A stretch of 64,000 bases of DNA. Source: a virus. The stretch lies in IMG/VR virus record IMGVR_UViG_3300020037_007643. One strand, written 5' to 3'. Positions 1,231 through 61,696 of this stretch are shown here, one piece after another. Both the position numbers and the translations under genes were made by a program. The notes beneath the pieces were generated by a model. The model did no database searches and was not told the origin of the DNA. It saw only the letters and a list, made by a program, of their open reading frames with translations. Position 1 is the first letter of the stretch. Each line of letters starts with the position of its first letter.

Positions 1231-4200
1231 ATGTCAGCTGCATCCCGCGCTTATTACGAAAAATTATACAGTGCACCGTATCATCAATACGGTGATTTTC
1301 AGGTTACAAGAGATTGGAAATGGTCTCCTATTCCAGGTAATCCATACGAGAATATTGTTTATAATCCAAAAGATTTAACACAAAAATTTCTAGCAAGTCC
1401 ATCCTTGACAGGGGGGGAACTTGGTTTATATATAAGTCAAGGTGATGCAAAAAAAGACTTCGGGAGTGATAACGCTATAAAAACAAATTTAATGTCACTC
1501 AATGATCTTGCTGTACAAAAAGCAGCTCAATCTGGTTATAAAGGTGACCTAAATCAGATTAAGGCCGTTATGGCACCTGACATGGGCCCAAATCCTTCAA
1601 CATACGATACAACATCACCAAAGGTTCAAAAGGAACAAAAATATGTTCTTAATGGAAAGATGTACACAACAACAGGATCTATTCCTGTTGGTGGAACTCT
1701 TGTTGATGATAATGGAGACCCACACAGTAAATACAAAACACCCGGTGTTATATATCAAACAAATTACATAGATCCAAATATAAGTGGAAGTAATATTGCT
1801 GTTGAGTATTGGACCTATAACAATAATGGAGAGAAAAAATCAATCACGGGAAGTTTGGGTACTTCAATAAAAGAAATAACAACAGCATTAGGTATTCCAT
1901 GGAATGGATATAACCCAAATTCATCCAAAAACACAATACCGAATCCACTAGAAAATATAACAAGAGTTGATACTAAGGATTTATACGGTGATGCTTATGA
2001 TCCACGAACTGGACAGGTAAATAAAACAATTATAGATATGTCATCTGATGTAAAAGGTGATTATTCTAATGTTGCATCTGAAAAAGCGTTTCAACAAAGC
2101 TCAAATACAAGTAATATTAATAAAAATACAACACCAAGTGCTTTAAATAACAATATTCAACAATTATCTTTCTCGGGGAATCTTAAATTAAATACAGGGT
2201 CAAGTGAGGACATTAAGAAACTTCAGAATTTTTTAAATACTACACAGAATGCTGGATTAACCGCTGATGGTAAATTTGGACCCCTCACAGAAGCAGCTGT
2301 CAAGAAATTCCAAAACTCAAACGGCTTAACACCTGATGGTATTGTTGGTCCAAATACATTAAGTGTTATAAACAAAAAAACAACACAGTCGGTCGTTAAT
2401 CAACAAGCACCACAACAAAATACACCTCAATCATCAAATCAAAGTGTTAACACATCACCAAGTAACATCCAATATACACCAGAAATCCCAACTATTCTAA
2501 AATACACATACCCAGATGCAGTTACTGAATTAGATTATTCAATAAAACATAGGGATGATCTAAAAAACCCAGAAACACTACAAAAATATTCATCACTACT
2601 TGCAACAGTACAGTTGTTTGACGAAGCGGCAAAGCAAGGGTTAAAAGATATGTCTTATGATGATGCTTTAGCTAAGGGGTATGTTCCAGAATTAGGAAAA
2701 AGCAAAAGATCACACTGGCTGGATTATGTAAAAGTGGACGAGGTTGCTAAAAAGTTTCTAACAGAAAAAGGTACTTATAATAATGTTTTAAATAACATTG
2801 GTTTATTAAACACAGCAAAAAAAAGTGGGTATACAGGCAGTGATTTAAAAGGGGCATTAGATCACCAAGTTTTTTTTGATGAAGCAAAAGGTCAAGCAAA
2901 AAATGCAGGTATTGATATATCTAACATTAATACAGTTCAAGAATTAACACAACTTGTACAAAAAAATAATAATTTTAATAACGCAAAAGCAGGGGATGTT
3001 GGTTTTAGTGGAATTAATACTTCTACAAAAGAAAGCAATAATATGGGTGTTGATACAACTGCACAAACAAATAACATGCAACAGTTATCCTTTTCTGGAA
3101 ACTTGAAATTAAATACAGGATCTTCTACTGATATCAAGAAACTTCAAGAGTTTTTAAATACAAAAGGTGCAAATCTTACAGCAGATGGAAAGTTTGGACC
3201 ATTAACTGAAGCCGCTGTTAAAAAATTCCAAAAAGAAAATGGACTTGTTGATGACGGTATTGTAGGACCACGCACTGTAGAAGCAATAAATAACTCAAAA
3301 CCAAAAACAAATACCAATAACACCGGTAGTGGTAATCAACAAACAGAAGTGCAACCTGGGGTTCAACCTGGAGTTGAAAATACCCCACAAACAGGATCAC
3401 AAACAGGATCACAAACAGGATCACAAACAAACTCACAATCGGGTTCAACAACACAAGGATCTAATTCGCTAAATCTATATGGAAACCAGAGAGCAGAATC
3501 AGCAGAAAGGTCTGCTTCTAAGTTTATTAAAGACGAAGCAGATATCGGTAAAGTGTTTGGTGAATTAACACAAGACTTTGTCACTAAAATAAAAAACGAC
3601 CCAAAACAAATGGCGTTCTATATAAGTGCCTTAGCTTATGGTGGATACACAATGGGAGATATTTACGCTGATATGTATTCACAGCAACAAAAGAAACTTG
3701 GGAAAACAGTTCCTGAGGCTAAATTTATAGACCCAACAGCAAAGAAAGCAGATTACGTGTTAACAGATAGTGGAAAAGCAGCTTCTAAGGCAATGGAAAC
3801 ACTATTACCGTCTAATTCAAAGATGAGAACACTTGATCCTAAGATATTAAAGTACGGATTAAGTGACCTACCTGATGACTTCTTTGCTGCATACTCAGAG
3901 AGACTCCCTAAACCTGGTACACCAGAATGGAAAGCCTTAGCATCTGAAATAAAAACTCAATATTATGATGCATTAACAGATGTTGCTTCTGCTGAAACAG
4001 AACAACAAAAAGCTCTTGCTGATGAAAAAATGAGACAGTTCAGGGAAGATGTAGAGAGAGACCTTGGAATAACACTTAGTGATAATTCAAATAATGCATG
4101 GAAGCAGATTCAAAATCTTGAAGAAACATACAACCAAAGAGGTATACAACAAAGTGGACTTAAAAATGAAGCCGTTGATGAAGTTCTGAAATCTGCAAGA

Positions 4201-5019
4201 TTAGCTGACTCAAGAAATAGAAACATAAAACTAACAGAAGAAGAAAGAACCGAGATGAATAACCTTAGAACATATGGAACACCAGCTCAAATAGCTGCTC
4301 TTTCTGCGGAACAAAGACAAAGACTCGGATTAACCCCATCTTCTGATATTCTAGAAAAGTTTAGTCTTGAAAACATAAAGAAAGCTGATCCAACATTAAC
4401 AGATGCAGAAGCACAGGCTTATAGAGATTCTGTTCTTGATGAGAATGGAAACTATAGAAGTAGTCTTTATACTAATTTCTATAAAGATAAACTTACAAAT
4501 TCAGAAAAAGCAAGAGAATTTCAAAACAACAAATTATTAACGACAAATAGCGAGCTTGAGTTAAAACTTGCAAAAGAAAAAGAAATGAGTAATAAGGAAA
4601 ACTTATTTGACTCACCTTCAAATAAGGATACTTTTAGTACAACAGGATCAGAAAATAAACAGTACGATCCATCTACTTATAACGTGCAAAACCAAGGACT
4701 CGAAAATTCAAGTAAAGCAGCTGGTAACATGGGTACAGGTACCACAGATGGCGCTTCAACTGCTGTAACTGGATCAAAATACAATTATGATTCATGGTTA
4801 ACGAATGGTAACTTAAAACAAGGATCTGCAAAAAGTAATTATGTTAGTGAACTACAAAGCTTCTTGAATGAAAACAATTATGGTGCAGGAACAGTAGATG
4901 GAATATTTGGTCAAAAAACAGCAAGTGCACTCCAGGCATATCAAATTAAGGCGGGGGTTACACCTGACGGTATTCTTGGTAAAGACACGCTTGCTGCCAT
5001 AAAAGCAAGTAAAAAATAG
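1231..5019 (+). CDS. Large virion-associated cell-wall-binding protein with three PG_binding_1 repeats
   Basis: LTADGKFGPLTEAAVKKFQ..NGL..DGIVGP motifs occur at about aa 340, 640 and 1225. There are SQTG repeats and a coiled-coil middle. Confidence 0.8.
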   Translation: MSAASRAYYEKLYSAPYHQYGDFQVTRDWKWSPIPGNPYENIVYNPKDLTQKFLASPSLTGGELGLYISQGDAKKDFGSDNAIKTNLMSLNDLAVQKAAQSGYKGDLNQIKAVMAPDMGPNPSTYDTTSPKVQKEQKYVLNGKMYTTTGSIPVGGTLVDDNGDPHSKYKTPGVIYQTNYIDPNISGSNIAVEYWTYNNNGEKKSITGSLGTSIKEITTALGIPWNGYNPNSSKNTIPNPLENITRVDTKDLYGDAYDPRTGQVNKTIIDMSSDVKGDYSNVASEKAFQQSSNTSNINKNTTPSALNNNIQQLSFSGNLKLNTGSSEDIKKLQNFLNTTQNAGLTADGKFGPLTEAAVKKFQNSNGLTPDGIVGPNTLSVINKKTTQSVVNQQAPQQNTPQSSNQSVNTSPSNIQYTPEIPTILKYTYPDAVTELDYSIKHRDDLKNPETLQKYSSLLATVQLFDEAAKQGLKDMSYDDALAKGYVPELGKSKRSHWLDYVKVDEVAKKFLTEKGTYNNVLNNIGLLNTAKKSGYTGSDLKGALDHQVFFDEAKGQAKNAGIDISNINTVQELTQLVQKNNNFNNAKAGDVGFSGINTSTKESNNMGVDTTAQTNNMQQLSFSGNLKLNTGSSTDIKKLQEFLNTKGANLTADGKFGPLTEAAVKKFQKENGLVDDGIVGPRTVEAINNSKPKTNTNNTGSGNQQTEVQPGVQPGVENTPQTGSQTGSQTGSQTNSQSGSTTQGSNSLNLYGNQRAESAERSASKFIKDEADIGKVFGELTQDFVTKIKNDPKQMAFYISALAYGGYTMGDIYADMYSQQQKKLGKTVPEAKFIDPTAKKADYVLTDSGKAASKAMETLLPSNSKMRTLDPKILKYGLSDLPDDFFAAYSERLPKPGTPEWKALASEIKTQYYDALTDVASAETEQQKALADEKMRQFREDVERDLGITLSDNSNNAWKQIQNLEETYNQRGIQQSGLKNEAVDEVLKSARLADSRNRNIKLTEEERTEMNNLRTYGTPAQIAALSAEQRQRLGLTPSSDILEKFSLENIKKADPTLTDAEAQAYRDSVLDENGNYRSSLYTNFYKDKLTNSEKAREFQNNKLLTTNSELELKLAKEKEMSNKENLFDSPSNKDTFSTTGSENKQYDPSTYNVQNQGLENSSKAAGNMGTGTTDGASTAVTGSKYNYDSWLTNGNLKQGSAKSNYVSELQSFLNENNYGAGTVDGIFGQKTASALQAYQIKAGVTPDGILGKDTLAAIKASKK

Positions 5020-5043: not shown

Positions 5044-5472
5044 ATGGAGAATGTCCCAAAAAAGAAATATCCAAACTTGTCATCGTTAGGGAATATTACC
5101 ACCCAATACGGAGGTAAGACTAAGTACGAAAAGTTTCACCCTGGCGTAGATATCGCTAATAAAAAGGGAACACCTATTCCAAACATGGAGGAAGGTCAGG
5201 TTGTGGGTGTAAAGCCGGGGCAAAAAAACGGAGATCATGGTTTTGGGAATTCTATTTTAGTAAAAGATAAAAAGAATAACGTACATAGATATAGCCACCT
5301 TCGTGATATTATGGTAAAACCAGGGGAAATGGTTCCTAAGAATAAAATCATTGGATCAATGGGTGACAGTGGATCTAGTTATTCAAATTCTGGTGGCCCA
5401 TCTGACCACTTAGATTATAGAATTGTAGATTCTTTCGGCAAATTTAAAAATCCAAAGAAATATCTAAAATAA
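5044..5472 (+). CDS. M23-family metallopeptidase (peptidoglycan endopeptidase)
   Basis: HPGVDIA ... GDHGFGNSILV ... HLDY motifs typical of LytM/M23. Confidence 0.75.
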   Translation: MENVPKKKYPNLSSLGNITTQYGGKTKYEKFHPGVDIANKKGTPIPNMEEGQVVGVKPGQKNGDHGFGNSILVKDKKNNVHRYSHLRDIMVKPGEMVPKNKIIGSMGDSGSSYSNSGGPSDHLDYRIVDSFGKFKNPKKYLK

Positions 5473-5473
5473 T

Positions 5474-7630
5474 ATGAGTAAAGAAAAAGATGCTATTATA
5501 AATTCAATTATGAACCACCCGAAGCTATCTTCGGTTATTTATGATGCAGTTAATGCGCCTATTGGAAGCACAAAACGTGCAAAAGCAAAATCAATACTTT
5601 CTATTGTAAAAAAATCAATGAGTAAGTATGATGGACAAGGTGGACCATTGAATATAGGAGCACAAGGTAACTCACTGAACACATCTTCATCACAAGGTCT
5701 TTCAATACCGTCTAATTTTACACCAATATCAGGTCTCTCACTTGGAGGATCTTCATCTGGCTCAAGTGGCTTAACGACCCCTCCAGTAAGTACAACAAAA
5801 GGGACAAAAGTTGTGGTGTTTCCAAGTGCTCCCACTCTTAAAACAAACACGAATAAATTAGATACAAACATAGACAGCATAATGAAGAGCATGTTTGGTA
5901 ATTCTTATACTCCAAGTACAACAAAAACAACCACACCCACAAAAACAGAACCATTAACTCTTTCCCCTCTTAAAAAAGTAGAAGATACATCGTTTTTAGC
6001 GGGTGGATCAAAAACAAAACTTACAGCTTTTGATGAATTCCAGAAAAGTGTTCAAGATAATATAAAACTTAATCAATTAAAATCAAACAATACACCAGTT
6101 GCTACTACTCAGACAACGGTAAAGAAATCTGACGGAACCGTTTCAACAACAACAAAAACTACACCAACTCAAACTGGATCACAAACAACCCAGAAAGTCG
6201 GAAATGTTACAGTACCTAAAACAACGGGAGGTAGTACAACAACATCTACTGGGACACCAAGTTCTACTACACCAAGATACGCAACATTAGAAGACGCTAT
6301 GGGTGTTGCGCCTTCTTTTATCGGAAAAAATACAGGATCTGAATATTTCGCACAACAAATGCTTGGATTAATGGAAGAAGGTCAAATCGGAAAATTAGGA
6401 GAAGAGCTGGATAAAAAATATGGTGTTACTGAACTTCTTAATAAAGCAAAAGAACTGCAGGATATGTCTCCAAATGCAGTAGATACAAGTATTGACTACG
6501 TTAAAGCAAGAGATCAATATGTTTCTGATATCAATAAAATGATTGATGATGTTAATGAAACTGTTGCAAATACAGACACAAGTAATCCTGTTACTGACGC
6601 TATGTATAAAAATTACAAGAATTATTTGTATACCCTCAAGGGGAGACAAAACCAGAGATATGCAGATTATGTTGATAATAATATAAAAAATTTCCAATCA
6701 GATCTTGATAATGTAAAGACTCAATACACTGAAGCACAAGGATTATACACTAGTGCAATGGATAATATAGAAGATAGATATGATGAAACAAAGAAGGTTC
6801 TTATTGATATGTATAAAACACTAGAGGATGCACCTGGGAAGATGCTCACAAGACTTACACAAGAACAAAATCTTAGTAAGTTACTAAGAGAGAATGCAGA
6901 TATAGCATCAGGAAGAACTGACTTTTATAAAGATTACGGTGTTTTCAAGGATAGTATTCTTGACGAAAATGGTAGAATCAAAAAAACAGCAAACCTCCCT
7001 GGTATAATACAAAACTTCTCTGTTTATGGAGATGCAGACGCTATGGCTGGAATTGATATATGGACAAGAGCTGGGATTGAAGAAGTTTACGATCTAACAC
7101 AATCACCAGATACATCACCTGAAGGATTAAAAAAGGCCCAAGAGTATTCATCTGCAATTGTAGATAGTTTTAACCTTTATGTAAATAGTGGTGTTATTAA
7201 TGAAAATACCGCAAAAAGTCTAGCACCTAGAGTATTGGGTATGGCACAATCACTACTTGGCGGTGCAATCGGAGACATAAAAGATGGACAAGGAACAGGA
7301 ATAACTGGATATATTCTCTCTAATTACAATGATATAAATAAAGCCGTTAAGCAATTAAGTGGTGATAATAATACGTTCTGGGGTACATTTCTAGCGAAGC
7401 CAAAGGCACCGAAAACAGAAGATCAGTTCATTAAAGACAATAAAAACATAGATCCAATGATATTGTCTGCAATTTACAAACAAAACGAAACTGCAAAAAA
7501 GGGAAATCCAGAATTTAACCTAAGAGAATACATAGATCTAATAAGTCAACCAAATCCATCATCAGTGGATTATAGTGGTGTACCTAAAGAACAAGCAACA
7601 GCAAAAGCGTTAATAGATTTCATATATTAA
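5474..7630 (+). CDS. Large Ser/Thr-rich hypothetical protein, probably virion or ejection protein
   Basis: 718-aa ORF between the M23 peptidase and the giant protein. It has a low-complexity T/S-rich N-terminal half. Confidence 0.7.
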   Translation: MSKEKDAIINSIMNHPKLSSVIYDAVNAPIGSTKRAKAKSILSIVKKSMSKYDGQGGPLNIGAQGNSLNTSSSQGLSIPSNFTPISGLSLGGSSSGSSGLTTPPVSTTKGTKVVVFPSAPTLKTNTNKLDTNIDSIMKSMFGNSYTPSTTKTTTPTKTEPLTLSPLKKVEDTSFLAGGSKTKLTAFDEFQKSVQDNIKLNQLKSNNTPVATTQTTVKKSDGTVSTTTKTTPTQTGSQTTQKVGNVTVPKTTGGSTTTSTGTPSSTTPRYATLEDAMGVAPSFIGKNTGSEYFAQQMLGLMEEGQIGKLGEELDKKYGVTELLNKAKELQDMSPNAVDTSIDYVKARDQYVSDINKMIDDVNETVANTDTSNPVTDAMYKNYKNYLYTLKGRQNQRYADYVDNNIKNFQSDLDNVKTQYTEAQGLYTSAMDNIEDRYDETKKVLIDMYKTLEDAPGKMLTRLTQEQNLSKLLRENADIASGRTDFYKDYGVFKDSILDENGRIKKTANLPGIIQNFSVYGDADAMAGIDIWTRAGIEEVYDLTQSPDTSPEGLKKAQEYSSAIVDSFNLYVNSGVINENTAKSLAPRVLGMAQSLLGGAIGDIKDGQGTGITGYILSNYNDINKAVKQLSGDNNTFWGTFLAKPKAPKTEDQFIKDNKNIDPMILSAIYKQNETAKKGNPEFNLREYIDLISQPNPSSVDYSGVPKEQATAKALIDFIY

Positions 7631-7631: not shown

Positions 7632-10600
7632 ATGGCAAATATAAAAGAAAATTCAGAATATTTAGACAAAATAAGTCCATCTAATTTTAAGAACTTACAA
7701 AAAAGTGTACAGAGTGGTATTTCTAGTTCTTATGTATCACCATATATAAGAACACCTCAAAAAATAGAGACGGGGATAGAAAGTGAATCACTTATGCCAG
7801 AGAAGGTCCAAGTATCACTTCCTTCTTCATCTAAAATGCAAGAACTTCCAGAGAGTTATCTTTCATCAAATTTTTTACCTGGACAAAAAACACCAGAGGG
7901 TGAGGTTATGTGGGGTAATCCATCTGATAAAACAGTAGCAAGAAACATATCAGAAAAAATGGGTGGCGGGCAATATGCACTAGATCCAACCCAACCTGGT
8001 ATAATAATAAAATCGAGTAGAGGATACGAACCAGAAGAGAATAAAATACTAAGAGGTGGAAGATCAAAAATTGAAGTTCAAATAGATCACATCATACCCT
8101 TATGGCTAGGTGGATTAGACACACTCGAAAACAAGCAGGTTTTAAATACAAAGGACCATATTAGAAAAACAAAAGCACAGGCCATTCCTCTTACACTATT
8201 GACTCAAGGTAAAATAACAAGGGATGAAGCATTTACGATGGCACTCAACTGGGAGTCATACAATGTAGATGATCTTCCAATGCCTGATAAATTTGGAATG
8301 ATAACAAATCTTCCAAGAGAAAAAGCTGATGAATTATCAAAGATTGCGTACGGACTAGATAGAGAAGAAAAAAATAAAGCTAAAGAGGAATATTATAAAC
8401 TCCTGGGTCTTGATGATGCAGCAATTAAGGCGAAACAAAAATTTGAATTTGACGTACAGCACCCTAAGGGGACTTTCGGTCATTCTTTTACTGACTCAGT
8501 AAAAGCTGTATGGAAGGAAATCCCTTCAGTATTCGCAAAATTTGGAGAAAATGACAAGGGTGAAAATACAATAGCTGGTGAATTCGGAAAGGGTCTTGTC
8601 ATGGGATCTCCTGCTGGTTTGGCTATTCTTGAAGAACCAGAAGAGCGTACTACTGCAGAAAAAATAGCATACGGTACTGGATATGGTATATCAACAATAG
8701 GAACACTCGGTGGTTTTATCAAAGGATTAACAAAAACAAGAATAGTATTATCAAAAATACCAGGTTTGGGTAAGGTTTTTGCAAAAAGTCCTGTATCAAA
8801 TGTTGTTAAACCATTACCGTGGAATGCCGGGCTTTTTGATATGAATCCAATTAAAACAATAGCACCAGAGTTATCTAGTAAAATTAAAATACCAGGGTTT
8901 GAAAAAGTAAAGAGCGCTCTTTCTAAAATTAATAATTTTGGCAAAGAAACTGGGAAAATATCAAAAACACAAGTTGTGAATGCAACAAAGGCACTTAAGG
9001 ATGCAAATAGGTTAGCAAAAGCAGAAGGTAATCTTGACTTGCAACAAATCCCAATGGAAATAGACAAAAGAGTTGCAGCTCGTATAAAATATAGCCCTAT
9101 ACTTCGAAATGCTTTTAATTTCGGGTCTTTTGGTGTTGCTAAGCAAGCAATACATGATGGATTAGATACACAAAGTGAGTCTGATTTTATGGATTATGCG
9201 GGTACATTTGCAACAGAAGCAATAATGGGTTCACTGTTCACAACAGCAGGGCAAAATCTAAAAGGATATGCAAAAATGGTAGCACCTGCACTTGTTCTAA
9301 GTACAATAAACGGAGAATCACCAGAAGATGCATTTGCCAGCGCGGTTACAATGGTAGGTTTGCACGGCATGGGTAGTAAGATGATGCAAAAATCACCATT
9401 ATCTAGAGATGTAATGAATTGGAAGGGAGATAAACACTCAACAATAGTTAATAAGGGTGAGAAATATGAGGATGTTATTGTTAGAGAAATGAACAAGGTT
9501 GCTGATGAGGCTTCTAATGATGTTCTTAATAAATGGGCACCCGTTAATACAACTAAGAGTGGAAATGGATCAAGAAAATACACACAAAAAGAATTAGAGT
9601 CAATAAAAGAAGAAGCTTTAACAAACATAGAACAAGCTGCTTATGATGAAGGTTGGACACCTCGTGAGTCTGACTCTGAGTTACTGAAAGCCCTTGCTTC
9701 TGTTAGACAATTAGATAAAGGAGGTATGGGTGCTATAATCAGAGATCGTGCAGATATTGCTGATGTAAAATCTATAGCAAAACAATTACAAGAATCAAAA
9801 ACAATTACGGGTGTACTTGGTGATAAAATTCCTAATCATCTTTATGAAACATACGGCAATTCAACACAAAAGGATCTTTCACCTGTTAATTTCACAGAAA
9901 AACCTAGTGGTAAATTCTCAGCTACAGGTATTTATCCATTAACTGGAGGTGGAAGTACTATTAATGAAGGAAAGACTAGATTAAACATAGAAGCATTTGA
10001 CAAAGCAGTAAAATCAGGAGAAGCTCCGTTTGGTGATAATGTATTCTTGATGGATAGAGGTAGTGATTATAAAAACAAAATGGAGTTTTTAAATAAAACA
10101 ACACCTAAAGAAAAAATAGACAAAGGTGAGTTTACTCCATTTAAAAATCCACAAAATACAGTTGAAGCATTTGGTGTTATAAAACATCCAGAAACAGGTG
10201 AAAATACTTTTATTTCACTTGGTTTTGTTGCGAGAGAAAGTAGAATACCAAAAATGAACGAAAAGGTTAACACAGAAGGACCAGATAGCCTTATTGAATA
10301 CAATAAATTTAATAATAAAGATACATTAAGTCAATCACTGAGAGATAATGGAATTAAGGGTGTTTGGGGAAGAATTCTTCCGTTAAAAACAGGATTAATG
10401 ACCACTAAGGGGGGTAAGAGTAGTGGAAAACAAGAATACCACCTAAGAGTACAACTTACAGACGGAAGATTTGAAGATTCAATAAACACAGAAAGATTAG
10501 CAAAAGAATCTAACAATCCAGCAACACCAGTAGTTGAATCAGTAGAACAGGTACCAAATAAAAAACCGGTAGTTGATACGACAATACAAAAACAGAACGA

Positions 10601-13600
10601 TGGTACCAATATAGATACTATCGGAAAAACAGAGATAATCCCTGAACAAAAAACAATAGTTAAAACACCTGAAATACCAACAACACAAGATAGTGGTTAT
10701 GTTACATCAAAAAATATTGAGAATACTATTGTAAATGAATCTGACAGAGCTGATATGACACCCGTTGAAAAAACAGTTAAAAAAGTAAAATCTCCAAATT
10801 TTAGAAACTTTATAATGACAGGAAGAGGAGAGGAAGGTGTTAATGCTGGAGTTGCTTCAATAATATCAGATCCTAAAACAAGGAGAGATTTTACGGAAAA
10901 AAACATAACAAAACTAGCAAAAGAGGTATCTAATAATGGCGAAAATATAAACGAAGGATGGCCTAAGTTTATTGAAATATTTACAAATAAGATTAAAAAA
11001 GCAACAGGAGATGATTCTTTTGAAATTACAAACACAAAAGATTTAAGAGATCTAAGTTGGCTATATAGAAGAAAAGCAAATTCTGGGACAAGAAAGGAGA
11101 TTATTCTTAATAAAGGTGGGTATGGATTGGTATTTAAAGAAGGATCTAAAGAAAACATTGGACAACTAGATAAGGATATAAAAAAATTCAATAAAGAAAA
11201 CGGACTCCCTGAAGACTCAATGGAGATTATTCATGTTGGGAAAAATAATAATTATCGCGATGAAATAAAAAATCCAACTGATAGTAGGAATATACTTTAT
11301 TATTTAACAGACGAAATACAACATCTTGACAAAAAAGGTTATACCCCACTCGGGATTGTTAAAAAAGGATCAGATGGTATAGTATTCATAAAAAAAGAAC
11401 CTAAACTTGTTAAGGATTTTGATACTAATCCTTTAAAATATTTAAATAAGGGTGAAAAAACCTCAGAATTTTCTTCGGATGATAAATTTATAAGAACTTT
11501 CTCTGTTGATGTTTTAGGTTGGCCTAAAGATGCAACAGCTGGTGACTTTGTTAAAAGATCAAACTTGAATACTCATCGCTATGATGTTTCAAAAGAAACA
11601 GGTAAGGTAAAGATGCATATTTTAAAGGCAAAAACAATAGGAGATCGAAAAGAATTAGACATAGATTCATCTAAGTTTGAAGATCCACAAAGTGAAAAAG
11701 CAAGAAAAGCAGTAGAATCATTTAAGAAGGGATCAGAAGTCGATGGTAAGACAATAGCAGGTGAAGATTTTTTTGATAAATCTATAGGGGGAGTTGATTA
11801 TGACCCAACAAAATACACAACAGGTTCAAAACCTCTTATTTCTGGATATGTAGAAAAAGCTGATGGGTCAAAAGTTAAAATAATAATGAAAAGCCACATG
11901 ACAAGAGCTGATGCTGCATATAGAAAAATGCTCAAAGAAGAATATGGTTTAGATCTTGGAAGAAATGAAATAGTAACTTTTGATACAAACATGAAACTTG
12001 GACCAAAGGAGGGATCACTCGATGTAAATATATCTGATATATATTTTAAACCTATTAGCGCAAGTGAGGATGGACGTGTTAAATCATCCCTAGAAAGAAA
12101 ATTCTCAAGTAATGATCCAAAAGTAACAGAAGATATGCTTGCGGAAACAGCCAAAAGAAGAAAAGATTTTGAGGCCTTTAACAAGGAGGCAATGGAAGCA
12201 AATACAAAAGAAAAACTAGAAAAAGTCATAGATAAATACGCAGAAAAATATAACTTAGATAAAGATGAACTATTCTACGGACCAATGGGTGAATCATTTA
12301 AGCTTGGAGCCGCAAGAGTAAACCTTGCCCACAACCTCGAGAAGATATCAAAGAACATGTTTATGGAAACAGTATTGTCTGACAACCTACCTAATAGTGG
12401 TAGATTATTCTACTCACCATCCATTAAATTACCAATAGATGGACCTAATAAACCATGGCGGTATGTTAAAGATGATGAAGTTGTACTAGGTGCTGAATTT
12501 ATGAAGAAGAGGGATATAAAAGAAGGTGATAAGGTTATGATTATGCGCGATCCTTCTTATGATATTAACAACATCACAGTTGCTAAGGCTATTAACGGCA
12601 CAAAATTAGGGCACGAGAGTCTTGGAAGAGAACATGCTGTTGTGAGTCATTTTAACGAGAGAGTTATACACCAAGCTGACCAAGATGGGGACAAGATGCT
12701 TATTATAAAAGTTGGTGAGGGTGGTGTTCCTGAGAGTTATGCTAATGCTGTACTCAAGAGAGGAAATCTGGCGACACCATTCACTGAAGTTAATGTTACA
12801 AAATCTGGATATGTTACATCAAAGAACATAATTAATGTTATCAAAAATCAGCTTGTTGGAGATGATCAGACAAGTCACATATCTGTAGTAAATCGTGTTA
12901 TGGATACAATAATAGAAAATGATTTAAAAATTAAAATTTACAAAGTAAAACCAGGGGAGGGTAGGTCAAAATATGATATTTTTTCAAATGGAAATCTTGT
13001 TGAGTCTGGTTTTACTAATTCAAGTCCAGATGATTTTATCGCAATTCCATCTTGGGGTAAAACAGAAAGACAACTAAGAAGTCAGGCCCTACAGGAAGCC
13101 CTTGACTCCAAAAAATCACTAGATATAGTAAATAGAAGTGAAGACAATAATCCATCTTGGATGATAAAACAAGTTTTTAAAAAACTGAGTGATAAAAACA
13201 TACCTAAAAATATAAAAAAATCAACAAAAGAAAAAGAAACATATAGTGATACAATACTAAACATTCAAAAAAAATTTAATATTAAAAAAACAGAAGAAAA
13301 AATAGGAGATACGATATCAAATAGTGAAGCAAGATCAATTAAAGGTGCAATGTCAAATATCCAAAAAATATTTAATATTGAAAAAATATCAGAAAAAAGT
13401 AAAAATCTTGATGAGGTTTTTACTAGATTAAAACCATCAATTGAATTAATTAAAAATATAAAAGAAAGTGGTGGAAGAATAACTCCATATCAAGAGAAGT
13501 GGTTAAGCCTACCAGAAACAATAACTTTTAGAATACCAGACAAGGTAAGATTAGATGCTGATAAACTTGGTGTTAAAAATGTCAGAGAATCATTGACTGA

Positions 13601-14021
13601 TATACCACTCGAAAATAAATCATTAAATCAGTTTATAAAATTATTTAAAAACATAAAAAAAGAATACAATAAAAAAGGAATATCAAAAGCAAATAAAAAG
13701 GAATTAATAAAAGAAATTGAAGATTTTTTCCTTGATAATGTTGATAATGGAACATATACACAAGAAGACATTGATTCAATCGCTCGATGGGCTGCAGTAA
13801 CAAAAGATGGTAATATTTCATTTGACACAGGTAAGTACGATACCCCCCGGTATGTATATAGACTTAATACTATAATTAATGCATCACCTAAGGTTGCTAA
13901 GGCTTATCTTGAGGCATCTGAAGGTGTTGATTTCTCATTAAACCCTGAGACACCGAACATTGACACACCAACTCAAAAATACTCAAATTTAACTAACACA
14001 ATAAAAAACAACCCTAACTAA
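7632..14021 (+). CDS. Giant 2129-aa protein with an N-terminal His-Me (HNH-like) motif and a beta-prime-like catalytic-loop motif; candidate virion RNA polymerase or ejected protein
   Basis: IDHIIPLWLGGLDTLENKQVLNTKDH lies at about aa 150-190. VIHQADQDGDKMLI lies at about aa 1680 and resembles NADFDGDQM. The reading frame is uninterrupted. Confidence 0.8.
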   Translation: MANIKENSEYLDKISPSNFKNLQKSVQSGISSSYVSPYIRTPQKIETGIESESLMPEKVQVSLPSSSKMQELPESYLSSNFLPGQKTPEGEVMWGNPSDKTVARNISEKMGGGQYALDPTQPGIIIKSSRGYEPEENKILRGGRSKIEVQIDHIIPLWLGGLDTLENKQVLNTKDHIRKTKAQAIPLTLLTQGKITRDEAFTMALNWESYNVDDLPMPDKFGMITNLPREKADELSKIAYGLDREEKNKAKEEYYKLLGLDDAAIKAKQKFEFDVQHPKGTFGHSFTDSVKAVWKEIPSVFAKFGENDKGENTIAGEFGKGLVMGSPAGLAILEEPEERTTAEKIAYGTGYGISTIGTLGGFIKGLTKTRIVLSKIPGLGKVFAKSPVSNVVKPLPWNAGLFDMNPIKTIAPELSSKIKIPGFEKVKSALSKINNFGKETGKISKTQVVNATKALKDANRLAKAEGNLDLQQIPMEIDKRVAARIKYSPILRNAFNFGSFGVAKQAIHDGLDTQSESDFMDYAGTFATEAIMGSLFTTAGQNLKGYAKMVAPALVLSTINGESPEDAFASAVTMVGLHGMGSKMMQKSPLSRDVMNWKGDKHSTIVNKGEKYEDVIVREMNKVADEASNDVLNKWAPVNTTKSGNGSRKYTQKELESIKEEALTNIEQAAYDEGWTPRESDSELLKALASVRQLDKGGMGAIIRDRADIADVKSIAKQLQESKTITGVLGDKIPNHLYETYGNSTQKDLSPVNFTEKPSGKFSATGIYPLTGGGSTINEGKTRLNIEAFDKAVKSGEAPFGDNVFLMDRGSDYKNKMEFLNKTTPKEKIDKGEFTPFKNPQNTVEAFGVIKHPETGENTFISLGFVARESRIPKMNEKVNTEGPDSLIEYNKFNNKDTLSQSLRDNGIKGVWGRILPLKTGLMTTKGGKSSGKQEYHLRVQLTDGRFEDSINTERLAKESNNPATPVVESVEQVPNKKPVVDTTIQKQNDGTNIDTIGKTEIIPEQKTIVKTPEIPTTQDSGYVTSKNIENTIVNESDRADMTPVEKTVKKVKSPNFRNFIMTGRGEEGVNAGVASIISDPKTRRDFTEKNITKLAKEVSNNGENINEGWPKFIEIFTNKIKKATGDDSFEITNTKDLRDLSWLYRRKANSGTRKEIILNKGGYGLVFKEGSKENIGQLDKDIKKFNKENGLPEDSMEIIHVGKNNNYRDEIKNPTDSRNILYYLTDEIQHLDKKGYTPLGIVKKGSDGIVFIKKEPKLVKDFDTNPLKYLNKGEKTSEFSSDDKFIRTFSVDVLGWPKDATAGDFVKRSNLNTHRYDVSKETGKVKMHILKAKTIGDRKELDIDSSKFEDPQSEKARKAVESFKKGSEVDGKTIAGEDFFDKSIGGVDYDPTKYTTGSKPLISGYVEKADGSKVKIIMKSHMTRADAAYRKMLKEEYGLDLGRNEIVTFDTNMKLGPKEGSLDVNISDIYFKPISASEDGRVKSSLERKFSSNDPKVTEDMLAETAKRRKDFEAFNKEAMEANTKEKLEKVIDKYAEKYNLDKDELFYGPMGESFKLGAARVNLAHNLEKISKNMFMETVLSDNLPNSGRLFYSPSIKLPIDGPNKPWRYVKDDEVVLGAEFMKKRDIKEGDKVMIMRDPSYDINNITVAKAINGTKLGHESLGREHAVVSHFNERVIHQADQDGDKMLIIKVGEGGVPESYANAVLKRGNLATPFTEVNVTKSGYVTSKNIINVIKNQLVGDDQTSHISVVNRVMDTIIENDLKIKIYKVKPGEGRSKYDIFSNGNLVESGFTNSSPDDFIAIPSWGKTERQLRSQALQEALDSKKSLDIVNRSEDNNPSWMIKQVFKKLSDKNIPKNIKKSTKEKETYSDTILNIQKKFNIKKTEEKIGDTISNSEARSIKGAMSNIQKIFNIEKISEKSKNLDEVFTRLKPSIELIKNIKESGGRITPYQEKWLSLPETITFRIPDKVRLDADKLGVKNVRESLTDIPLENKSLNQFIKLFKNIKKEYNKKGISKANKKELIKEIEDFFLDNVDNGTYTQEDIDSIARWAAVTKDGNISFDTGKYDTPRYVYRLNTIINASPKVAKAYLEASEGVDFSLNPETPNIDTPTQKYSNLTNTIKNNPN

Positions 14022-14036
14022 TAGGGTTGTTTTTTA
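14010..14036. terminator. Bidirectional rho-independent terminator
   Basis: Hairpin AACCCTA-actaa-TAGGGTT with T-runs on both strands, between convergent genes. Confidence 0.6.
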
Positions 14037-14330
14037 TTAAAATACTATAAATGTTTCTATTGAGAATATTACATATATATTAATGTCTGGATCATTACAG
14101 TGTGGACACTTGAATTCAGCCCACCTAAGAGTATTTTGAACTGGGTCAAAATTAAGATTTGTTGATTTTAAGCACTTAGAACATTTATATGCTGGGAACT
14201 TCCCCTCAAACTCAGCTTTCTTTTTCTTAAAGTAATCTTGTTTAAAACAACGTCTACTACAGAATAATTGCTTATGTTTTTTAGCAAAAAACTTACTCCC
14301 ACAATTTTTACAAGAGCGTTCTATTTGCAT
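14037..14330 (-). CDS. Zinc-ribbon protein
   Basis: CKNCGS..CSRRC..CSKC..CPHC cysteine pairs. Confidence 0.5.
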   Translation of the reverse strand: MQIERSCKNCGSKFFAKKHKQLFCSRRCFKQDYFKKKKAEFEGKFPAYKCSKCLKSTNLNFDPVQNTLRWAEFKCPHCNDPDINIYVIFSIETFIVF

Positions 14331-15146: not shown

Positions 15147-16778
15147 TTAATAATTATTCTTGTCTTCTTCTTTATCTTTTATTTCATCTGAGACCGATGC
15201 TCCTATTGTGAGTGCAGTTGCCGCTGCTTCTGCTGCATTCTGTAATGCGATTATAATAACCTTAATAGAATCTATTATACCAGCTTCTATCATATCATCA
15301 ACAATCTTACCAGATATTGCATCATAACCAGAATCTTTATGTTCTTTCAGTCTCAAAGAGAGTTCTTTTTCCATTGCTTCAATATCGTTCTCACCAGCAT
15401 TTATCATGATTTTCTTGAGTGGCATCTTAATTGATTCCATGACAATATTGAAACCAATTTTTTCTTCTGCTGTCATTTCCTTACTTTCAAGTGACATACT
15501 GTCTGCAATACTAAACAACTCAGAGCCTCCACCTTTTACGAATCCTTCCTGAAGTGAATTTCTTGCCTCATCAATAGAGTCATCAATCTTCATTTTAAGA
15601 TATTTCATTCCGGCTTCTGTTAATGCTCCTATCTTTATTATACCAGCTCCTCCAGAGAGTTTTCCTATTCTTGACTCCATATTCTTAATATCAATGTTTG
15701 ATTTAAGTTCTGAAAGTTGAGTTTTAAGTTCTTCTATTCTATTATTAACAAGTTCTTTTGTATTTGGATTACCAATGATTACTGTTTCATTTCTAGATAC
15801 AACAATCTTCTTTGCAAAACCAACACTATCAAGTTCCGCTGTCTTCATTGGGTTCCCTGTTTCATCTGAGATTATCTTTGCACCAGTCAATATTTCAATA
15901 TCCTTAAGTATCTCTTTCTTTTCAACACCAAACCCTGGAGATTTAATTGCAACAACACGAAATCCTCCTCTCATATTATTACCCACGAGTGTCTCAAGCG
16001 CCTCACCATCAACATCTTCTGCTATAATAAGAAGTTCTCCAATACCAGATGTTGCCATTTTTTCTTGAATAGGAAGAAAGTCTTTGATTTGGATCATCTT
16101 TTTATCAACAATCATAACTGCAACATTATCGTATTCTGCCTCCATCTTATTTGGATTGTTGACCATCCACGGGTTAATCCAACCTCTCTCTATTTTCATT
16201 CCATCAACAATTTCAAGAGTAATACCACTACTCAAAGTAGACTCCTCTGCTTTGACGATTCCATCTTTACCCACCTTATCAAATGCTTCAGCTACAATAG
16301 CACCACATTCTTCTGATTCAGATGATATAGTAGCAACTGCTTTCAATTGATCATTTGTTTCAATCTTAGTAGCTCTTTTCTTTAGTTCTTCAATTACATA
16401 AGCAGCACCCTTTTCAATACCCTTTTTAATTGCAATAACATTAACACCCTTTTTTATCTGGCTAAAACCTTCATTAAAAATTGATTGTGTTAACACAATA
16501 GAAGCTGTTCTTGCTCCTCTTGCTTTATCGTTAGTTTTAATTGCAACATCTCTAACAATGTCTGCTCCCATATTCTGAAGACGATCCTTTAGTATAACTG
16601 TTCGTATGCCATCAAGGCCATCATTACTGATACTTGGTGGCATAATACCTCTATCAACAATGATATTTCTACCACGAGGGCCGAGTGTTACACCAGCTAG
16701 TTCAGCTACTGTATTTATACCTTTTTGTATTCGAGTTAATGCACCTTCCCCAAATGTAATTTCTTTATTTATAGCCAT
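15147..16778 (-). CDS. groEL: GroEL-like (Cpn60) chaperonin
   Basis: N-terminus ...VTLGPRGRNIIVDRG... aligns to GroEL VTLGPKGRNVVLDKSFG. 543 aa. Confidence 0.85.
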   Translation of the reverse strand: MAINKEITFGEGALTRIQKGINTVAELAGVTLGPRGRNIIVDRGIMPPSISNDGLDGIRTVILKDRLQNMGADIVRDVAIKTNDKARGARTASIVLTQSIFNEGFSQIKKGVNVIAIKKGIEKGAAYVIEELKKRATKIETNDQLKAVATISSESEECGAIVAEAFDKVGKDGIVKAEESTLSSGITLEIVDGMKIERGWINPWMVNNPNKMEAEYDNVAVMIVDKKMIQIKDFLPIQEKMATSGIGELLIIAEDVDGEALETLVGNNMRGGFRVVAIKSPGFGVEKKEILKDIEILTGAKIISDETGNPMKTAELDSVGFAKKIVVSRNETVIIGNPNTKELVNNRIEELKTQLSELKSNIDIKNMESRIGKLSGGAGIIKIGALTEAGMKYLKMKIDDSIDEARNSLQEGFVKGGGSELFSIADSMSLESKEMTAEEKIGFNIVMESIKMPLKKIMINAGENDIEAMEKELSLRLKEHKDSGYDAISGKIVDDMIEAGIIDSIKVIIIALQNAAEAAATALTIGASVSDEIKDKEEDKNNY

Positions 16779-25852: not shown

Positions 25853-25866
25853 ACTAAAGAAGTCAA
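25838..25866 (-). promoter_or_regulatory. Conserved promoter copy (TTGACT-N17-TATAAT), leaderless configuration
   Basis: Reverse complement reads TTGACTtctttagtatgggggagTATAATgtaaatATG. Confidence 0.65.
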
Positions 25867-29352: not shown

Positions 29353-29358
29353 AATTCC

Positions 29359-29387
29359 ATTATACTCCCCTATATTAAAGAAGTCAA
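29359..29387 (-). promoter_or_regulatory. Conserved promoter copy, leaderless configuration
   Basis: Reverse complement reads TTGACTtctttaatataggggagTATAATggaattATG. Confidence 0.7.
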
Positions 29388-29629: not shown

Positions 29630-29818
29630 TTAATATCTTTGACCTTCTAATGATAAGTCACCTGCATCAATAGCCATATCCCTACTTACATACCTAATCT
29701 CTTCTTCATTTTCACATCCACAATGAATCAACTCCGGCATATTTTGTTCTTCTTGTGAAAATAAACTTGGATCTTGTTGCCATTCTCCACACGCTCCACA
29801 TCTCTGTAAATTATTCAT
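29630..29818 (-). CDS. Small Cys-containing hypothetical protein
   Basis: 62-aa ORF. Confidence 0.35.
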   Translation of the reverse strand: MNNLQRCGACGEWQQDPSLFSQEEQNMPELIHCGCENEEEIRYVSRDMAIDAGDLSLEGQRY

Positions 29819-31565
29819 CGTCTATTTCATCCAACATACTTTTTGTAACAACAACCACTTCTTTCTCTTCTTTTTCTTCTGGAACTTGATACGATGATGG
29901 AGTTGTTGTACTTGTCATTTCATTCCATCCTTCGACTGCTTTCTTTTCATCCTCGTTTCGATCTGAGTAAGCGAATCTTTCATTTATCATCGTAAACCAT
30001 GCTGATAGTGTTTGTCCTGTCTTACGATTTTTTGCTAATGTTATTTTTGTATATTCAGTAAAATAACCCTTTGAATCTTTACCTGTATCTCTTTCTCTTT
30101 CTATTAAAAACACAAGGTCACTTTCTTGAGCTACCCCCGCGGTGTCCTTTATACTTTCAATATCCAATGCTCCGTTTGTTTTTCTTACGTGTACAGGTAG
30201 AACAATTATAACTTCTTCACTTAATGCTATTGTTTTTAAGTCTCTCACTATTTGTGTTACAAAAGTAGCATGGTTTTGTGACATATTCTTTCCTAGTATT
30301 CCATTTGTTTTTGGAAGAAGAAATCCGAGGTGGTCTATCACAACAACCTTTATATTAAATTTTTCTTTTGCTTCTTTAACTTTTGCCTCAACCCATGCAA
30401 CATTTCCTGATGTGTGTTTGGCTGGTATAACAGTAATATCATCTTCTGTCATTCCCATTGTTTTAAACTTCTTCCAAAGGTGACTTGGTAAAAGTTCATA
30501 AGAGAACCAAAGTACAGGTGCCTTTTTGGGTCCTCTGATAAAACTAAGTGTCCAATCTTGAGCAATAGACGATTTACCCTCACCTGTTCTTCCCGCAACC
30601 GAAACAAGGTCACCTGGTGAGGCACCGCCCATTATCAAGTCATCGAAACATTTCATTTCGAGTGGGTAAACATCATCTTGGTCAACAACTTGTTCAGAAG
30701 CTACAATTGAGATGTGTTTTACTTCGTCACTACCGTCAGAAAGGTGCTCGAGGAGGGCGTTATTCGGCTCATTTTTGACCGTAGAGGCCGTTAATGGAGT
30801 TTTTCGGGTCTCAATACCTTTTATGCTCCTAAACGATGCGTAGAGCTCTCCTGTGGACAATGGAGGGGTGTTTTTCTGGTTAGCTTTCACGATAATCTCC
30901 CATCCGTATGTCTCCCAGTGTGCAGGGTGTATTCTAGATAGAACCTTTCCAATAAACCTAGTTATTTCTTCATTGCGAACACCCTTGCCGTAACCTGGGT
31001 ATGATTCAAGAAGGAAGAATGCATCTGATTGTATTTCTTCAGAAGCTGGTTCTGATTTTTCTGTTTTAATCTCTACCTCTTTTTTTGTCCCACCCAATAG
31101 AAGAGCCCTAGTTTCTGGTGACATTTTTACAATAGGACAATCATTTAAAATTGAATATTCTCCTTTTGTTGTTTTTGAACCAACCGTTACACAGTACCCA
31201 CCTTCTGAACGTATATCCACTAATGGGAATATTCTAACTGCATTCTTGAATCCTTCTTCGTGCTGAAAATAAGCATGAACTCCACCAGACCCAGTACGGA
31301 CCTTAAATGTTTTATCTTTAATCAAATCAAAATCTGCACCATTCTCGAAATCAACTACAAGTAAATTACTTAACTTGCCAGTAGCTACACCAAGTTGCAT
31401 TGATGGATATATTTCAAGCCATTTTTTTATCTGTTCAAGATCAGCCTTTTCTGTCTGGTATTTCTTCCAAGGAATAAGAGGAACTTTATCTTCCCCTACG
31501 GGGATTAAAGACCACCCGATAGAAATTGCTCTCTCTGCTATTTTTAATAATTTTTCATTTATCAT
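29811..31565 (-). CDS. Primase-polymerase (prim-pol) N-terminal domain fused to a DnaB-like helicase
   Basis: N-terminal bifunctional primase/polymerase-like region. C-terminal Walker A VSVAGRTGEGKSS and Walker B VVVIDHLG. Confidence 0.75.
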   Translation of the reverse strand: MINEKLLKIAERAISIGWSLIPVGEDKVPLIPWKKYQTEKADLEQIKKWLEIYPSMQLGVATGKLSNLLVVDFENGADFDLIKDKTFKVRTGSGGVHAYFQHEEGFKNAVRIFPLVDIRSEGGYCVTVGSKTTKGEYSILNDCPIVKMSPETRALLLGGTKKEVEIKTEKSEPASEEIQSDAFFLLESYPGYGKGVRNEEITRFIGKVLSRIHPAHWETYGWEIIVKANQKNTPPLSTGELYASFRSIKGIETRKTPLTASTVKNEPNNALLEHLSDGSDEVKHISIVASEQVVDQDDVYPLEMKCFDDLIMGGASPGDLVSVAGRTGEGKSSIAQDWTLSFIRGPKKAPVLWFSYELLPSHLWKKFKTMGMTEDDITVIPAKHTSGNVAWVEAKVKEAKEKFNIKVVVIDHLGFLLPKTNGILGKNMSQNHATFVTQIVRDLKTIALSEEVIIVLPVHVRKTNGALDIESIKDTAGVAQESDLVFLIERERDTGKDSKGYFTEYTKITLAKNRKTGQTLSAWFTMINERFAYSDRNEDEKKAVEGWNEMTSTTTPSSYQVPEEKEEKEVVVVTKSMLDEIDDE

Positions 31566-33289: not shown

Positions 33290-33318
33290 AATCTTTTAAG
33301 ATTTAAACTTGTAATTAC

Positions 33319-33347
33319 ATTATACTCCCCTATATTAAAGAAGTCAA
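33319..33347 (-). promoter_or_regulatory. Conserved promoter copy
   Basis: Reverse complement reads TTGACTtctttaatataggggagTATAATgtaattacaag. Confidence 0.7.
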
Positions 33348-35486: not shown

Positions 35487-35532
35487 GGAATTGTAATAGT
35501 CGAAGTATTACAATATTAATAATAAAAATTAA

Positions 35533-59523: not shown

Positions 59524-59895
59524 TTATATTATGTTTTTTTCCATGAGGATTTTCCTTAATTTTGGATTTCCCCAGTTCTTTATTATTTGTGTATTTTTTT
59601 TTGTTATAGTTATATCTATGTAATCTCTATCGCAATTATTGGTAATACACCAAGAGTATTTGTATCCTAAATTTTCTTTTTCACCTCTTTTGTATAAAGT
59701 ATCAATGATAGAAGCTCTATTTAGTAAGTTTTCGTTTGAGCATATCCAAACAATACTTAAGCTTACTGCCCCTTTTGGTATGAAGATTTTTCCTGTTATC
59801 TTTTTATCGTATGCTATTATTTCTATTACATCACCATGTTTAAGATATTTTGCTATTGTTGTAGCATCTGGTGATTCTAAACTAATTGGTCTCAT
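59524..59895 (-). CDS. Paralog family member 2
   Basis: C-terminus IIKNWGNPKLRKILMEKNII. Confidence 0.55.
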   Translation of the reverse strand: MRPISLESPDATTIAKYLKHGDVIEIIAYDKKITGKIFIPKGAVSLSIVWICSNENLLNRASIIDTLYKRGEKENLGYKYSWCITNNCDRDYIDITITKKNTQIIKNWGNPKLRKILMEKNII

Positions 59896-60317: not shown

Positions 60318-60406
60318 ATATCCCTGATGAACCAAGGATATATTGGAACAACGCAGAGTAAGTTGCTACTCCCTGTTTATTCTTGTATTTCACAGTTTCC
60401 AATATG

Positions 60407-60769
60407 CTATATTATGTTTTTCTCCATGAGGATTTTCCTTAATTTACGATTTCCCCAGTTCTTTATTATTTGTGTCTCATCTTTGGTTATTACAAGGTCA
60501 CAATCTGGAATTTCTCTAATACACCAAGAGTACATATACTCAAGATTCTTTCTTTCGTTTCCTCTGTATAAGATTTTAGGTATGGTTGCTCCATCTAAAT
60601 TAGGTTTGTTTGAGCATACCCATACAGTTTCTGATTCTATAGCAAGTGGTATGAAAATTCTCCCTTTTATTTTTTCACTACCTGTTGGTCCTAAAAATAT
60701 TGTTATATTATCCCCATGCTTTAGTTCTCTCCTTATGTCTCTGCAATTTGGATTTACTAAATACTTCAT
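60407..60769 (-). CDS. Paralog family member 3
   Basis: C-terminus IIKNWGNRKLRKILMEKNII. Confidence 0.55.
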   Translation of the reverse strand: MKYLVNPNCRDIRRELKHGDNITIFLGPTGSEKIKGRIFIPLAIESETVWVCSNKPNLDGATIPKILYRGNERKNLEYMYSWCIREIPDCDLVITKDETQIIKNWGNRKLRKILMEKNII

Positions 60770-61696
60770 ATTGCTATATATACTATAATGCTAATAATAA
60801 TGGCTATAGTAAAACCCATATAATAGCCAGTTTTTCTCGCTTGCTTACGCATAACTTCCATATCTTCTTTTGTGTACATGTATTCTTTCATATGTTTTAA
60901 TTTTACTAATAATTATGGTCCCTTCTGGAATTGCACCAGATTCTCTCCCTCCACATGGGATTGTTCTACTGATGAACTAAGGAACCGAAATAAGTATTAA
61001 GGAAGGAGTTTTCGATTGTCTCCTGATTATGGCCGCCTATAATCCCTTTTTCTCAATGGTTAATACTTAAACCCTGTGTTACTCTCAATTTCTCTTAAGT
61101 ACAGGATACAAAAGGTAATATATGATAAAGCCCCTGATGTTTAGGATAAAATCCTTTTAATATATATTACTTTCTATTACTCTATTATTACCTTTTGTAT
61201 TCCACACTCAATAAAAGAAAAATGGAGTAATATGGATAATCAAGTATGTAAGGCGTATGATAGCATATTTATTCTTTGCGTTCATAACTCCTTTTTATTT
61301 CCTTACTTCCTAGGTATATCCCAGCCTGAGCCAGTTTACCCTAAGTTGATTATCCATATTACCCCACTTCTCTTTTAAATTATATATATGATAGAGAGCA
61401 TTAGCCTTAATGCTTTATATATAACCTTCGAATGTTTTTATTTCCTCTCGGACTCTCTGTCATTCTGATTTAAATTACTGGTGTAATCTTTAATTCTTTC
61501 TATTAAATTGTAAAAGTACTAAGCACCCAAAACAATCAATAATCCTCTGTATTGATTATCTTATTGCATAAAGTATATATAGCTAAATATACTTATAGTG
61601 CTCATTATCGGATATAAGCTAGTTGGTTAACCTTTGAGTCCAAGTGTTATTCTATGGACTATATAGTTACTAGTTTGGGTGCTTAATACTCTTACG

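Follow-up and report, generated by a model that had tools for sequence, protein, structure and literature searches.

The locus at positions 7632 to 14021 of IMG/VR virus record IMGVR_UViG_3300020037_007643 raises the question of whether a single giant phage protein is an RNA polymerase (RNAP), and whether such an enzyme would enter the host cell together with the phage DNA. In the window, that is, the whole stretch of 64,000 nucleotides (nt) that was analysed, this open reading frame (ORF) encodes 2129 amino acids (aa). A previous reading of the sequence alone (the sequence-only reading) had interpreted the product as a crAss-type RNAP with an N-terminal motif resembling an HNH/His-Me finger nuclease. 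The ORF and both motifs are found as it described. The segment VIHQADQDGDKMLI (aa 1678-1691) contains ADQDGDKM, identical to the catalytic loop ADFDGDQM at six of the eight positions, and the segment IDHIIPLWLGGLDTLENKQVLNTKDH (aa 151-176) contains the HNH-like pattern DH...N...H at aa 152-176. The ATG of the ORF lies 2 nt past the stop codon of the upstream gene (7630), and M1, N7 and Y10 are invariant among the homologues; the start is well placed, since the N-terminus is conserved.

The bare D.DGD motif is weak on its own. The DQDGD at aa 1683-1687 is the single occurrence in a six-frame translation of the window, yet 0.043 occurrences are expected by chance in the 2129-aa protein and 4% of 20,000 shuffled sequences contain one. 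This is within chance, so the case for a polymerase must rest on other evidence, and the motif gains its significance through conservation. A word-indexed search of 5.8 billion proteins retrieved 33 relatives of 1464-3340 aa, metagenomic throughout and none of them with a functional name. Fourteen homologues align end to end, and in these D1683, D1685 and D1687 do not vary even at 19% identity, and neither do about 40 other columns. An exhaustive hidden Markov model (HMM) search of 1.84 billion cluster representatives with a profile of the C-terminal part (aa 1201-2129) yielded 107 clusters at E<=1e-3, 84 of them at E<=1e-30, and nearly all of these proteins are 2000-2700 aa long. The family thus comprises about 100 clusters at 50% identity, all of unannotated metagenomic proteins. 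At the corresponding position all full-length members have DxD[GA]D, usually in the form (E/Q)GD(Y/F/H/Q)DGD. Judging from these alignments, the family is sizeable and closed, and the motif is the feature under the strongest constraint in it. The weakest matches to the C-terminal profile are other large proteins with GDFDGD, two of which match the PHROG 'RNA polymerase beta subunit' at that place. A pattern scan of IMG/VR found no relative.

With regard to individual members, some (P0006, P0007 and P0008) carry an extra histidine phosphatase domain (PF00300, E 4e-28) C-terminal to the RNAP. An 860-aa protein (P0042) looks like a stand-alone polymerase, but its contig measures 3.8 kb and its ORF overlaps the one upstream; the gene has probably been split in calling, and the protein was left out of the evidence.

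An AlphaFold2 (AF2) model of aa 1201-2129, built from a 12-sequence alignment, reached a mean predicted local distance difference test (pLDDT) score of 83 and a predicted template modelling (pTM) score of 0.77. The sequence-only reading had suggested comparing such a model with gp66 of phage phi14:2, and the corresponding entry, 6vr4, is indeed the best Foldseek match (E 2.4e-10). It is followed by entries of QDE-1 (E 2e-8 to 3e-6), by RDR2 (E 5e-5) and by P23-45 gp96 (E 8e-4), with the largest subunits of cellular RNAPs ranking below gp96. The residues structurally aligned to the model number 655 for gp66 and 577 for QDE-1. The model presents a first, beta-subunit-like double-psi beta-barrel, a helical connector and a second, beta-prime-like barrel that carries the DxDGD loop, with the three acidic residues as the predicted Mg-binding triad (Table 1). 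The first barrel is a six-strand barrel-like block with invariant lysine and asparagine residues, recognised from the strand pattern of the model. A candidate bridge helix, assigned by position, follows. Further downstream, after beta hairpins, a low-confidence, variable and disordered insert (aa 1858-1891) is a candidate trigger loop. The order of barrel, connector, barrel with Asp triad and bridge helix is that of gp66 and QDE-1 (bioRxiv 10.1101/2020.03.07.982082). The motif match was to be taken as coincidental, according to the sequence-only reading, if neither a double-psi fold nor a second barrel could be found; both barrels are present in the model. The C-terminal ~930 residues therefore almost certainly adopt, as modelled, a single-chain two-barrel RNAP fold whose closest solved structure is gp66, in line with the earlier crAss-type interpretation.

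At the sequence level, the 2129-aa protein is not recognisably homologous to the virion-packaged gp66 of the Cellulophaga crAss-like phage phi14:2 (PDB 6VR4). A tblastn search against 50,697 phage records gave no match for it, whereas gp66 retrieves 141 (Crassvirales and Flavobacterium phages). Searches of PDB sequences, one by phmmer and two with profiles, retrieved no polymerase, and Pfam and PHROG scans returned sub-threshold HNH matches only. The missing PHROG polymerase match is uninformative, since gp66 itself has no PHROG match. Aligned by hhalign to gp66 alone, the family profile gave a probability of 0.1%. Against a self-built crAss core profile of eight sequences (gp66 and seven crAss/FpV homologues), the best alignment was not significant (E 0.007, 5.4% probability); it places R1639-x-P1641 on the crAss YRIP and DQDGD on DFDID. 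Two more weak matches are collinear with it, one of them placing NVKxG (K1455) on the crAss VKVG. These alignments are consistent with a very distant homology to the crAss virion RNAPs (vRNAPs), of which they are not proof.

Several features set the family apart from the crAss enzymes. The fourth motif position is Gly or Ala, in contrast to D[FY]D[IV]D in all eight crAss/FpV sequences. The motif lies at aa 1683 rather than 1361 as in gp66, the bridge-like helix follows about 45 aa after it rather than about 165 aa, and the N-terminal 1200 aa bear the HNH motif and do not match the gp66 N-terminus. To our knowledge, single-chain two-barrel RNAPs of the gp66 type were until now associated with crAss-like phages of Bacteroidota, that is, Crassvirales and their Flavobacterium-phage relatives. 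On the basis of the model, the proteins described here are a new, unannotated second family of gp66-like single-chain two-barrel RNAPs; they are distinct from the crAss enzymes in their sequence, their variant of the motif, the HNH fusion at the N-terminus and, apparently, the phage lineage.

Other known polymerases are more remote. QDE-1 and RDR2 are eukaryotic RNA interference (RNAi) enzymes outside any virion context; they share about 9-10% identity and lack an N-terminus of the HNH or ejection type. In phages P23-45 and P74-26, gp96 is a virion RNAP fused to the tape-measure protein and gp62 is a non-virion RNAP. The structural match to these RNAPs is much weaker than that to gp66, and in gp96 the polymerase is N-terminal to a siphovirus tape-measure protein, whereas here it is C-terminal to an HNH region and encoded in a podovirus-like ejection operon. 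The likeness to N4 is functional only: a giant polymerase gene stands beside two or three other genes for ejection proteins. The N4 vRNAP has a T7-like right-hand fold and not a two-barrel one, so no homology exists between the two. In N4 (Schitoviridae), the gp50 vRNAP and the ejection proteins gp51 and gp52 are reported to be expelled with the DNA, and gp50 to start transcription (PMC13434306).

The N-terminal half contains the best-conserved part of the whole protein (aa 100-210), which is common to all 32 aligned relatives. Its core follows the pattern QIDHIIPLWLGGADTLANKQ.L....H..KT, with H153 conserved in 31 of the 32 sequences, N167 in all of them and H or N at position 176 in 31. DSSP assigns strands at aa 149-153 and 168-172 and a helix at aa 173-191 of the model (pLDDT about 90), which is the beta-beta-alpha-metal topology. 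The AF2 model of aa 1-1200 as a whole is partly confident (pLDDT 64.7, pTM 0.42). The Pfam HNH match of the 2129-aa protein has an E-value of 0.011 and 16.3 bits, against a gathering cut-off of 21.4, and the PHROG HNH match an E-value of 0.004. Only one of 14 close members matches Pfam HNH at E<=0.01, and relatives match PHROG HNH families at E 6e-7 to 2e-6. A 32-sequence profile retrieved from the PDB the HNH domain of Cas8f-HNH (8YDB, E 0.001), with the catalytic residues aligned. The protein shares with HNH nucleases (PF01844, for instance Cas8f-HNH) the DH...N...H residues on a predicted beta-beta-alpha unit, but its core lacks zinc-binding cysteines and sits inside a 2129-aa virion-type protein. 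The evidence for the HNH assignment is thus mixed, and a nuclease activity of the domain is putative. Literature searches on virion RNAPs retrieved no HNH-RNAP fusion. Downstream of this domain, a Gly/Ala-rich region (pLDDT <50 over aa 352-542) may be a membrane-interacting or unfolded translocation segment, which is a guess only.

The N-terminal part also occurs without the polymerase. In nineteen of the 33 relatives, the similarity is confined to the N-terminal ~600-900 aa, and no DxDxD occurs anywhere. The C-terminal halves of 18 proteins (17 of these 19 and P0029, in which the motif is missing from the polymerase position) have almost nothing in common, either mutually or with the polymerase profile. 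A degenerate polymerase hidden in the DxDxD-less relatives was sought with hmmsearch --max and hhalign; both were negative, and this possibility was rejected. One polymerase-less protein (P0021) occupies the identical slot, after a peptidoglycan (PG)-binding protein, an M23 peptidase and an 886-aa protein. Since these relatives keep the N-terminus and their C-terminal halves are unlike each other, the HNH-bearing part has the look of a shared chassis, and the polymerase that of a C-terminal module confined to certain lineages.

The genomic position of the gene suggests how the enzyme would be used. It is the last gene of a tightly packed tail/ejection operon on the + strand, next to the PG-binding protein and the M23 peptidase, neighbours already named by the sequence-only reading and recovered here by Pfam and PHROG matches. 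A contig of this phage that extends further (79.9 kb) shows the upstream order holin, Laminin_G_3 protein, SU10-type head-to-tail adaptor and proteins of 762, 650, 57 and 191 aa; these are followed by the PG-binding protein, the M23 peptidase, the 718-aa protein and the RNAP gene. The succession of PG-binding protein, M23 peptidase, 700-900 aa protein and giant protein recurs around relatives at 40%, ~21% and ~25% identity, and in those at 40% and ~21% a convergent GroEL/SbcCD/RecA block comes next after the giant-protein gene. The gp66 gene of phi14:2 likewise closes a block of structural proteins verified by mass spectrometry. Apart from this gene, the window contains no ORF that matches an RNA polymerase or has the length to encode one, and a primase-polymerase/helicase is encoded separately (29811..31565). 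Because the gene ends a conserved tail/ejection operon and no other RNAP was found in the window, the protein is probably a late-made, packaged and co-ejected early-transcription enzyme.

Under this explanation, the 2129-aa protein would be made late, packaged in the capsid and expelled into the next cell with the DNA, the PG-binding protein, the M23 peptidase and the 718-aa protein, the latter three of which would breach the wall. Once inside the cell, it would transcribe the first phage genes, presumably from the DNA template, without the host RNAP. Transcription of the replication genes would then fall to the host sigma-70/sigma-A holoenzyme. These genes stand behind a repeated element, CTTGACTTCTTTA[AG]TATAGGGGAGTATAATG, which consists of TTGACT, a 17-nt spacer and TATAAT. 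Its six strong and two weaker copies precede replication-module genes, all co-oriented with them, and the spacer is almost invariant and G-rich. By its two hexamers the family is of the host sigma-70/sigma-A promoter type, and the conserved spacer might bind an additional factor. The sequence-only reading had proposed these promoters as the polymerase's own target. In phi14:2, the host RNAP reads sigma-70-like promoters and the gp66-dependent early transcripts are without a common motif (bioRxiv 10.1101/2020.03.07.982082). Since the element is of the textbook sigma-70 type and such promoters are host-read in phi14:2, that proposal appears unlikely. When the region of small ORFs between 44 and 64 kb was scanned for another family of repeats suited to be vRNAP promoters, nothing convincing emerged.

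The explanation of an injected two-barrel RNAP as a whole is given a probability of roughly 0.7, and a number of observations weigh against it. The structural neighbours include the RNA-dependent QDE-1 and RDR2 and the non-virion P74 gp62. Moreover, gp66 uses only single-stranded or denatured DNA as a template in vitro (bioRxiv 10.1101/2020.03.07.982082), and the packaging of the 2129-aa protein is deduced from gene order. The protein could accordingly be an active two-barrel polymerase in another role, such as a non-virion middle or late RNAP, a QDE-1-like RNA-dependent or single-stranded-DNA-templated polymerase, or a primase in replication or counter-defence. This seems unlikely, however, because the gene ends the tail/ejection operon and not the replication module, in a conserved position, and because the polymerase is fused to a ~1200-aa region common to giant proteins of the same slot. 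Furthermore, the replication genes have host-type promoters and a primase-polymerase/helicase of their own.

The polymerase-less positional orthologues with the same N-terminal region also speak against an injected polymerase, as they indicate that the core function of the slot needs none. A structural ejection protein that retains a catalytically dead relic of the polymerase fold would be compatible with them, but it is less likely still: the Asp triad and about 20 further residues in both barrels are strictly conserved throughout ~100 clusters (<=50% identity), and position 4 of the motif holds the canonical Gly, or Ala, both compatible with Mg binding. Conservation of this kind would not be expected of a relic. 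Lastly, the frequency of D.DGD in shuffled sequences and the failure of every sequence method to link the protein to RNAPs would be expected if the motif were coincidental and the protein unrelated to RNA polymerases. That possibility is hardly credible, as it is already contradicted by the Foldseek matches and the structural alignments with gp66 and QDE-1. The injected polymerase is thus the explanation that is preferred here.

With regard to the phage itself, neither the RNAP, nor the SU10-type adaptor, which lies upstream of the window (L004 4357-5499), nor a 567-aa protein at 52636-54339(-) matched any of the 50,697 phage records by tblastn. The 567-aa protein is a phiEco32-type COOH-NH2 ligase (PF14395, E 7e-9) and adjoins a protein with a weak glutamine-amidotransferase match (51415-52620(-)). 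The best matches of the primase-polymerase/helicase are in Enterococcus siphophages at 29% identity, and all its matches are in non-Crassvirales phages. The ligase and the adaptor hint at a distant kinship with phiEco32/SU10-like podoviruses. Among the proteins tested there was no Crassvirales match, which does not prove the phage to be non-Crassvirales; the window does not include the genes for the major capsid protein, portal and terminase, and exact matching against metagenome contigs, aimed at the capsid genes upstream, gave no match. One relative is found in a metagenome-assembled genome binned as Bacilli, and the host may be a member of the Bacillota, which is a hint only. A scan of GTDB genomes found unrelated bacterial HNH genes only, with no prophage copy and no host.

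Other elements of the window and of related contigs are listed here for completeness. A GroEL-type chaperonin (15147-16778(-); L008 44971-46443) is encoded just past the convergent terminator, and phi14:2 too encodes GroEL. The contig that encodes P0005, the relative with 40% identity, bears anti-defence genes (Acb2/Tad1-hairpin and Tad2-like; L002 18252-18482 and 19650-19916) beside its GroEL gene. The window holds 11 tRNA genes in two clusters, at 38533-41487(+) (Gly, Pro, Met, Gln, Tyr and three Leu) and at 60027-60986(-) (Arg-TCT, Ile-TAT and His). An 83-nt direct repeat with 90% identity (59525-59607 and 60408-60490) flanks the Arg/Ile tRNA pair, with His just outside, and overlaps small ORFs on opposite strands (59524..59895(-); 60327..60788(+) and 60407..60769(-)). 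Two tandem 53-nt copies, 83% identical, lie at 63436-63541 in a stretch without long ORFs near the window end and could represent an origin, a terminus or a regulatory region.

Table 1. Coordinates of the giant polymerase gene, its predicted domains and associated features (window positions unless a locus is named).
Feature	Residues (aa)	Position (nt)	Strand	Basis and remarks
Whole gene	1-2129	7632..14021	+	HNH-bearing N-terminal region and predicted C-terminal two-barrel RNAP; uninterrupted ORF; 33 homologues, 107 representative clusters
Best-conserved N-terminal domain	55-275	7794..8456	+	GGGQY..DPTQPG..KS.R, then HNH core; AF2 pLDDT 80-93; 32-sequence alignment; also in polymerase-less relatives
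Predicted beta-beta-alpha-metal (His-Me/HNH) core	149-191	8076..8204	+	D152-H153, N167, H176
Gly/Ala-rich, weakly hydrophobic, low-confidence region	314-585	8571..9386	+	Kyte-Doolittle peaks 0.92-1.01 at aa 314-332, 345-363 and 567-585; Gly 11%
Confidently modelled helical and alpha/beta domains	611-960	9462..10511	+	
First double-psi beta-barrel, beta-subunit-like	1370-1475	11739..12056	+	Model strand pattern; invariant G1372, K1400, K1420, N1453, K1455, K1473
Helical connector linking both barrels	1487-1581	12090..12374	+	Model helices 296-381
Second double-psi beta-barrel, beta-prime-like, with catalytic loop	1589-1694	12396..12713	+	Invariant R1639, P1641, K1652, G1660
DQDGD, predicted Mg-binding catalytic Asp triad	1683-1687	12678-12692	+	D1683, D1685 and D1687 invariant; DxD[GA]D in all full-length family members
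Candidate bridge helix, 33 residues	1730-1762	12819..12917	+	AF2 helix 530-562; invariant G1743, near-invariant R1755; assigned by position
Conserved C-terminal helical domain	1897-2096	13320..13919	+	AF2 pLDDT; W2053, N2061, A2089 and Y2092 invariant; after the insert at aa 1858-1891
PG-binding protein	1262 in length	1231..5019	+	Three PG_binding_1 (E 1.9e-50) and PG_binding_3
M23 peptidase		5044..5472	+	Peptidase_M23, E 1.9e-17
718-aa protein	718 in length	5474..7630	+	Tightly packed, co-oriented
Bidirectional intrinsic-terminator hairpin		13999..14039	both	18-pair stem, T runs on either side; ends the structural/ejection operon and the convergent replication operon
Six strong promoter copies		~25808-25853(-), 29329-29374(-), 33289-33334(-), 35457-35490(+), 38406-38439(+), 43870-43903(+)	+ and -	
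Two weaker promoter copies		near 42366, near 43549	+	
Polymerase-less giant proteins (P0010, P0012, P0015-P0027, P0029-P0032)	1464-2087 in length	locus L020 10001-16015		No similarity to the polymerase profile

A wider reading, possible rather than probable, joins the injected polymerase to its polymerase-less relatives as a modular system of injected effectors. An HNH chassis of about 900 aa would serve as a delivery vehicle in uncultured podovirus-like phages and would carry exchangeable C-terminal cargo: a crAss-type RNAP in one branch, sometimes with a histidine phosphatase, and unrelated modules of 600-1100 aa in the same slot of sister lineages. In the RNAP branch, the linked HNH domain could nick or open the incoming DNA, and this would supply single-stranded sites of entry, which gp66-type enzymes require in vitro. 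If true, it could explain why gp66-type enzymes show no promoter motif.

Enzymes of the gp66 type have been discussed as possible ancestors of the eukaryotic RNAi polymerases. The family described here, with its ~100 clusters that are invisible to Pfam, PHROGs and BLAST, provides an independent lineage for rooting the gp66/QDE-1 branch. It keeps a loop with the canonical glycine, unlike the DFDID loop of the gp66 crystal, which is reportedly self-inhibited. Two-barrel RNAPs of this kind occur in phages that match no Crassvirales record and have an SU10/phiEco32-type adaptor and amidoligase. The HNH-RNAP fusion, together with the polymerase-less orthologues, opens a route to understanding the delivery of injected polymerases and their search for a template.

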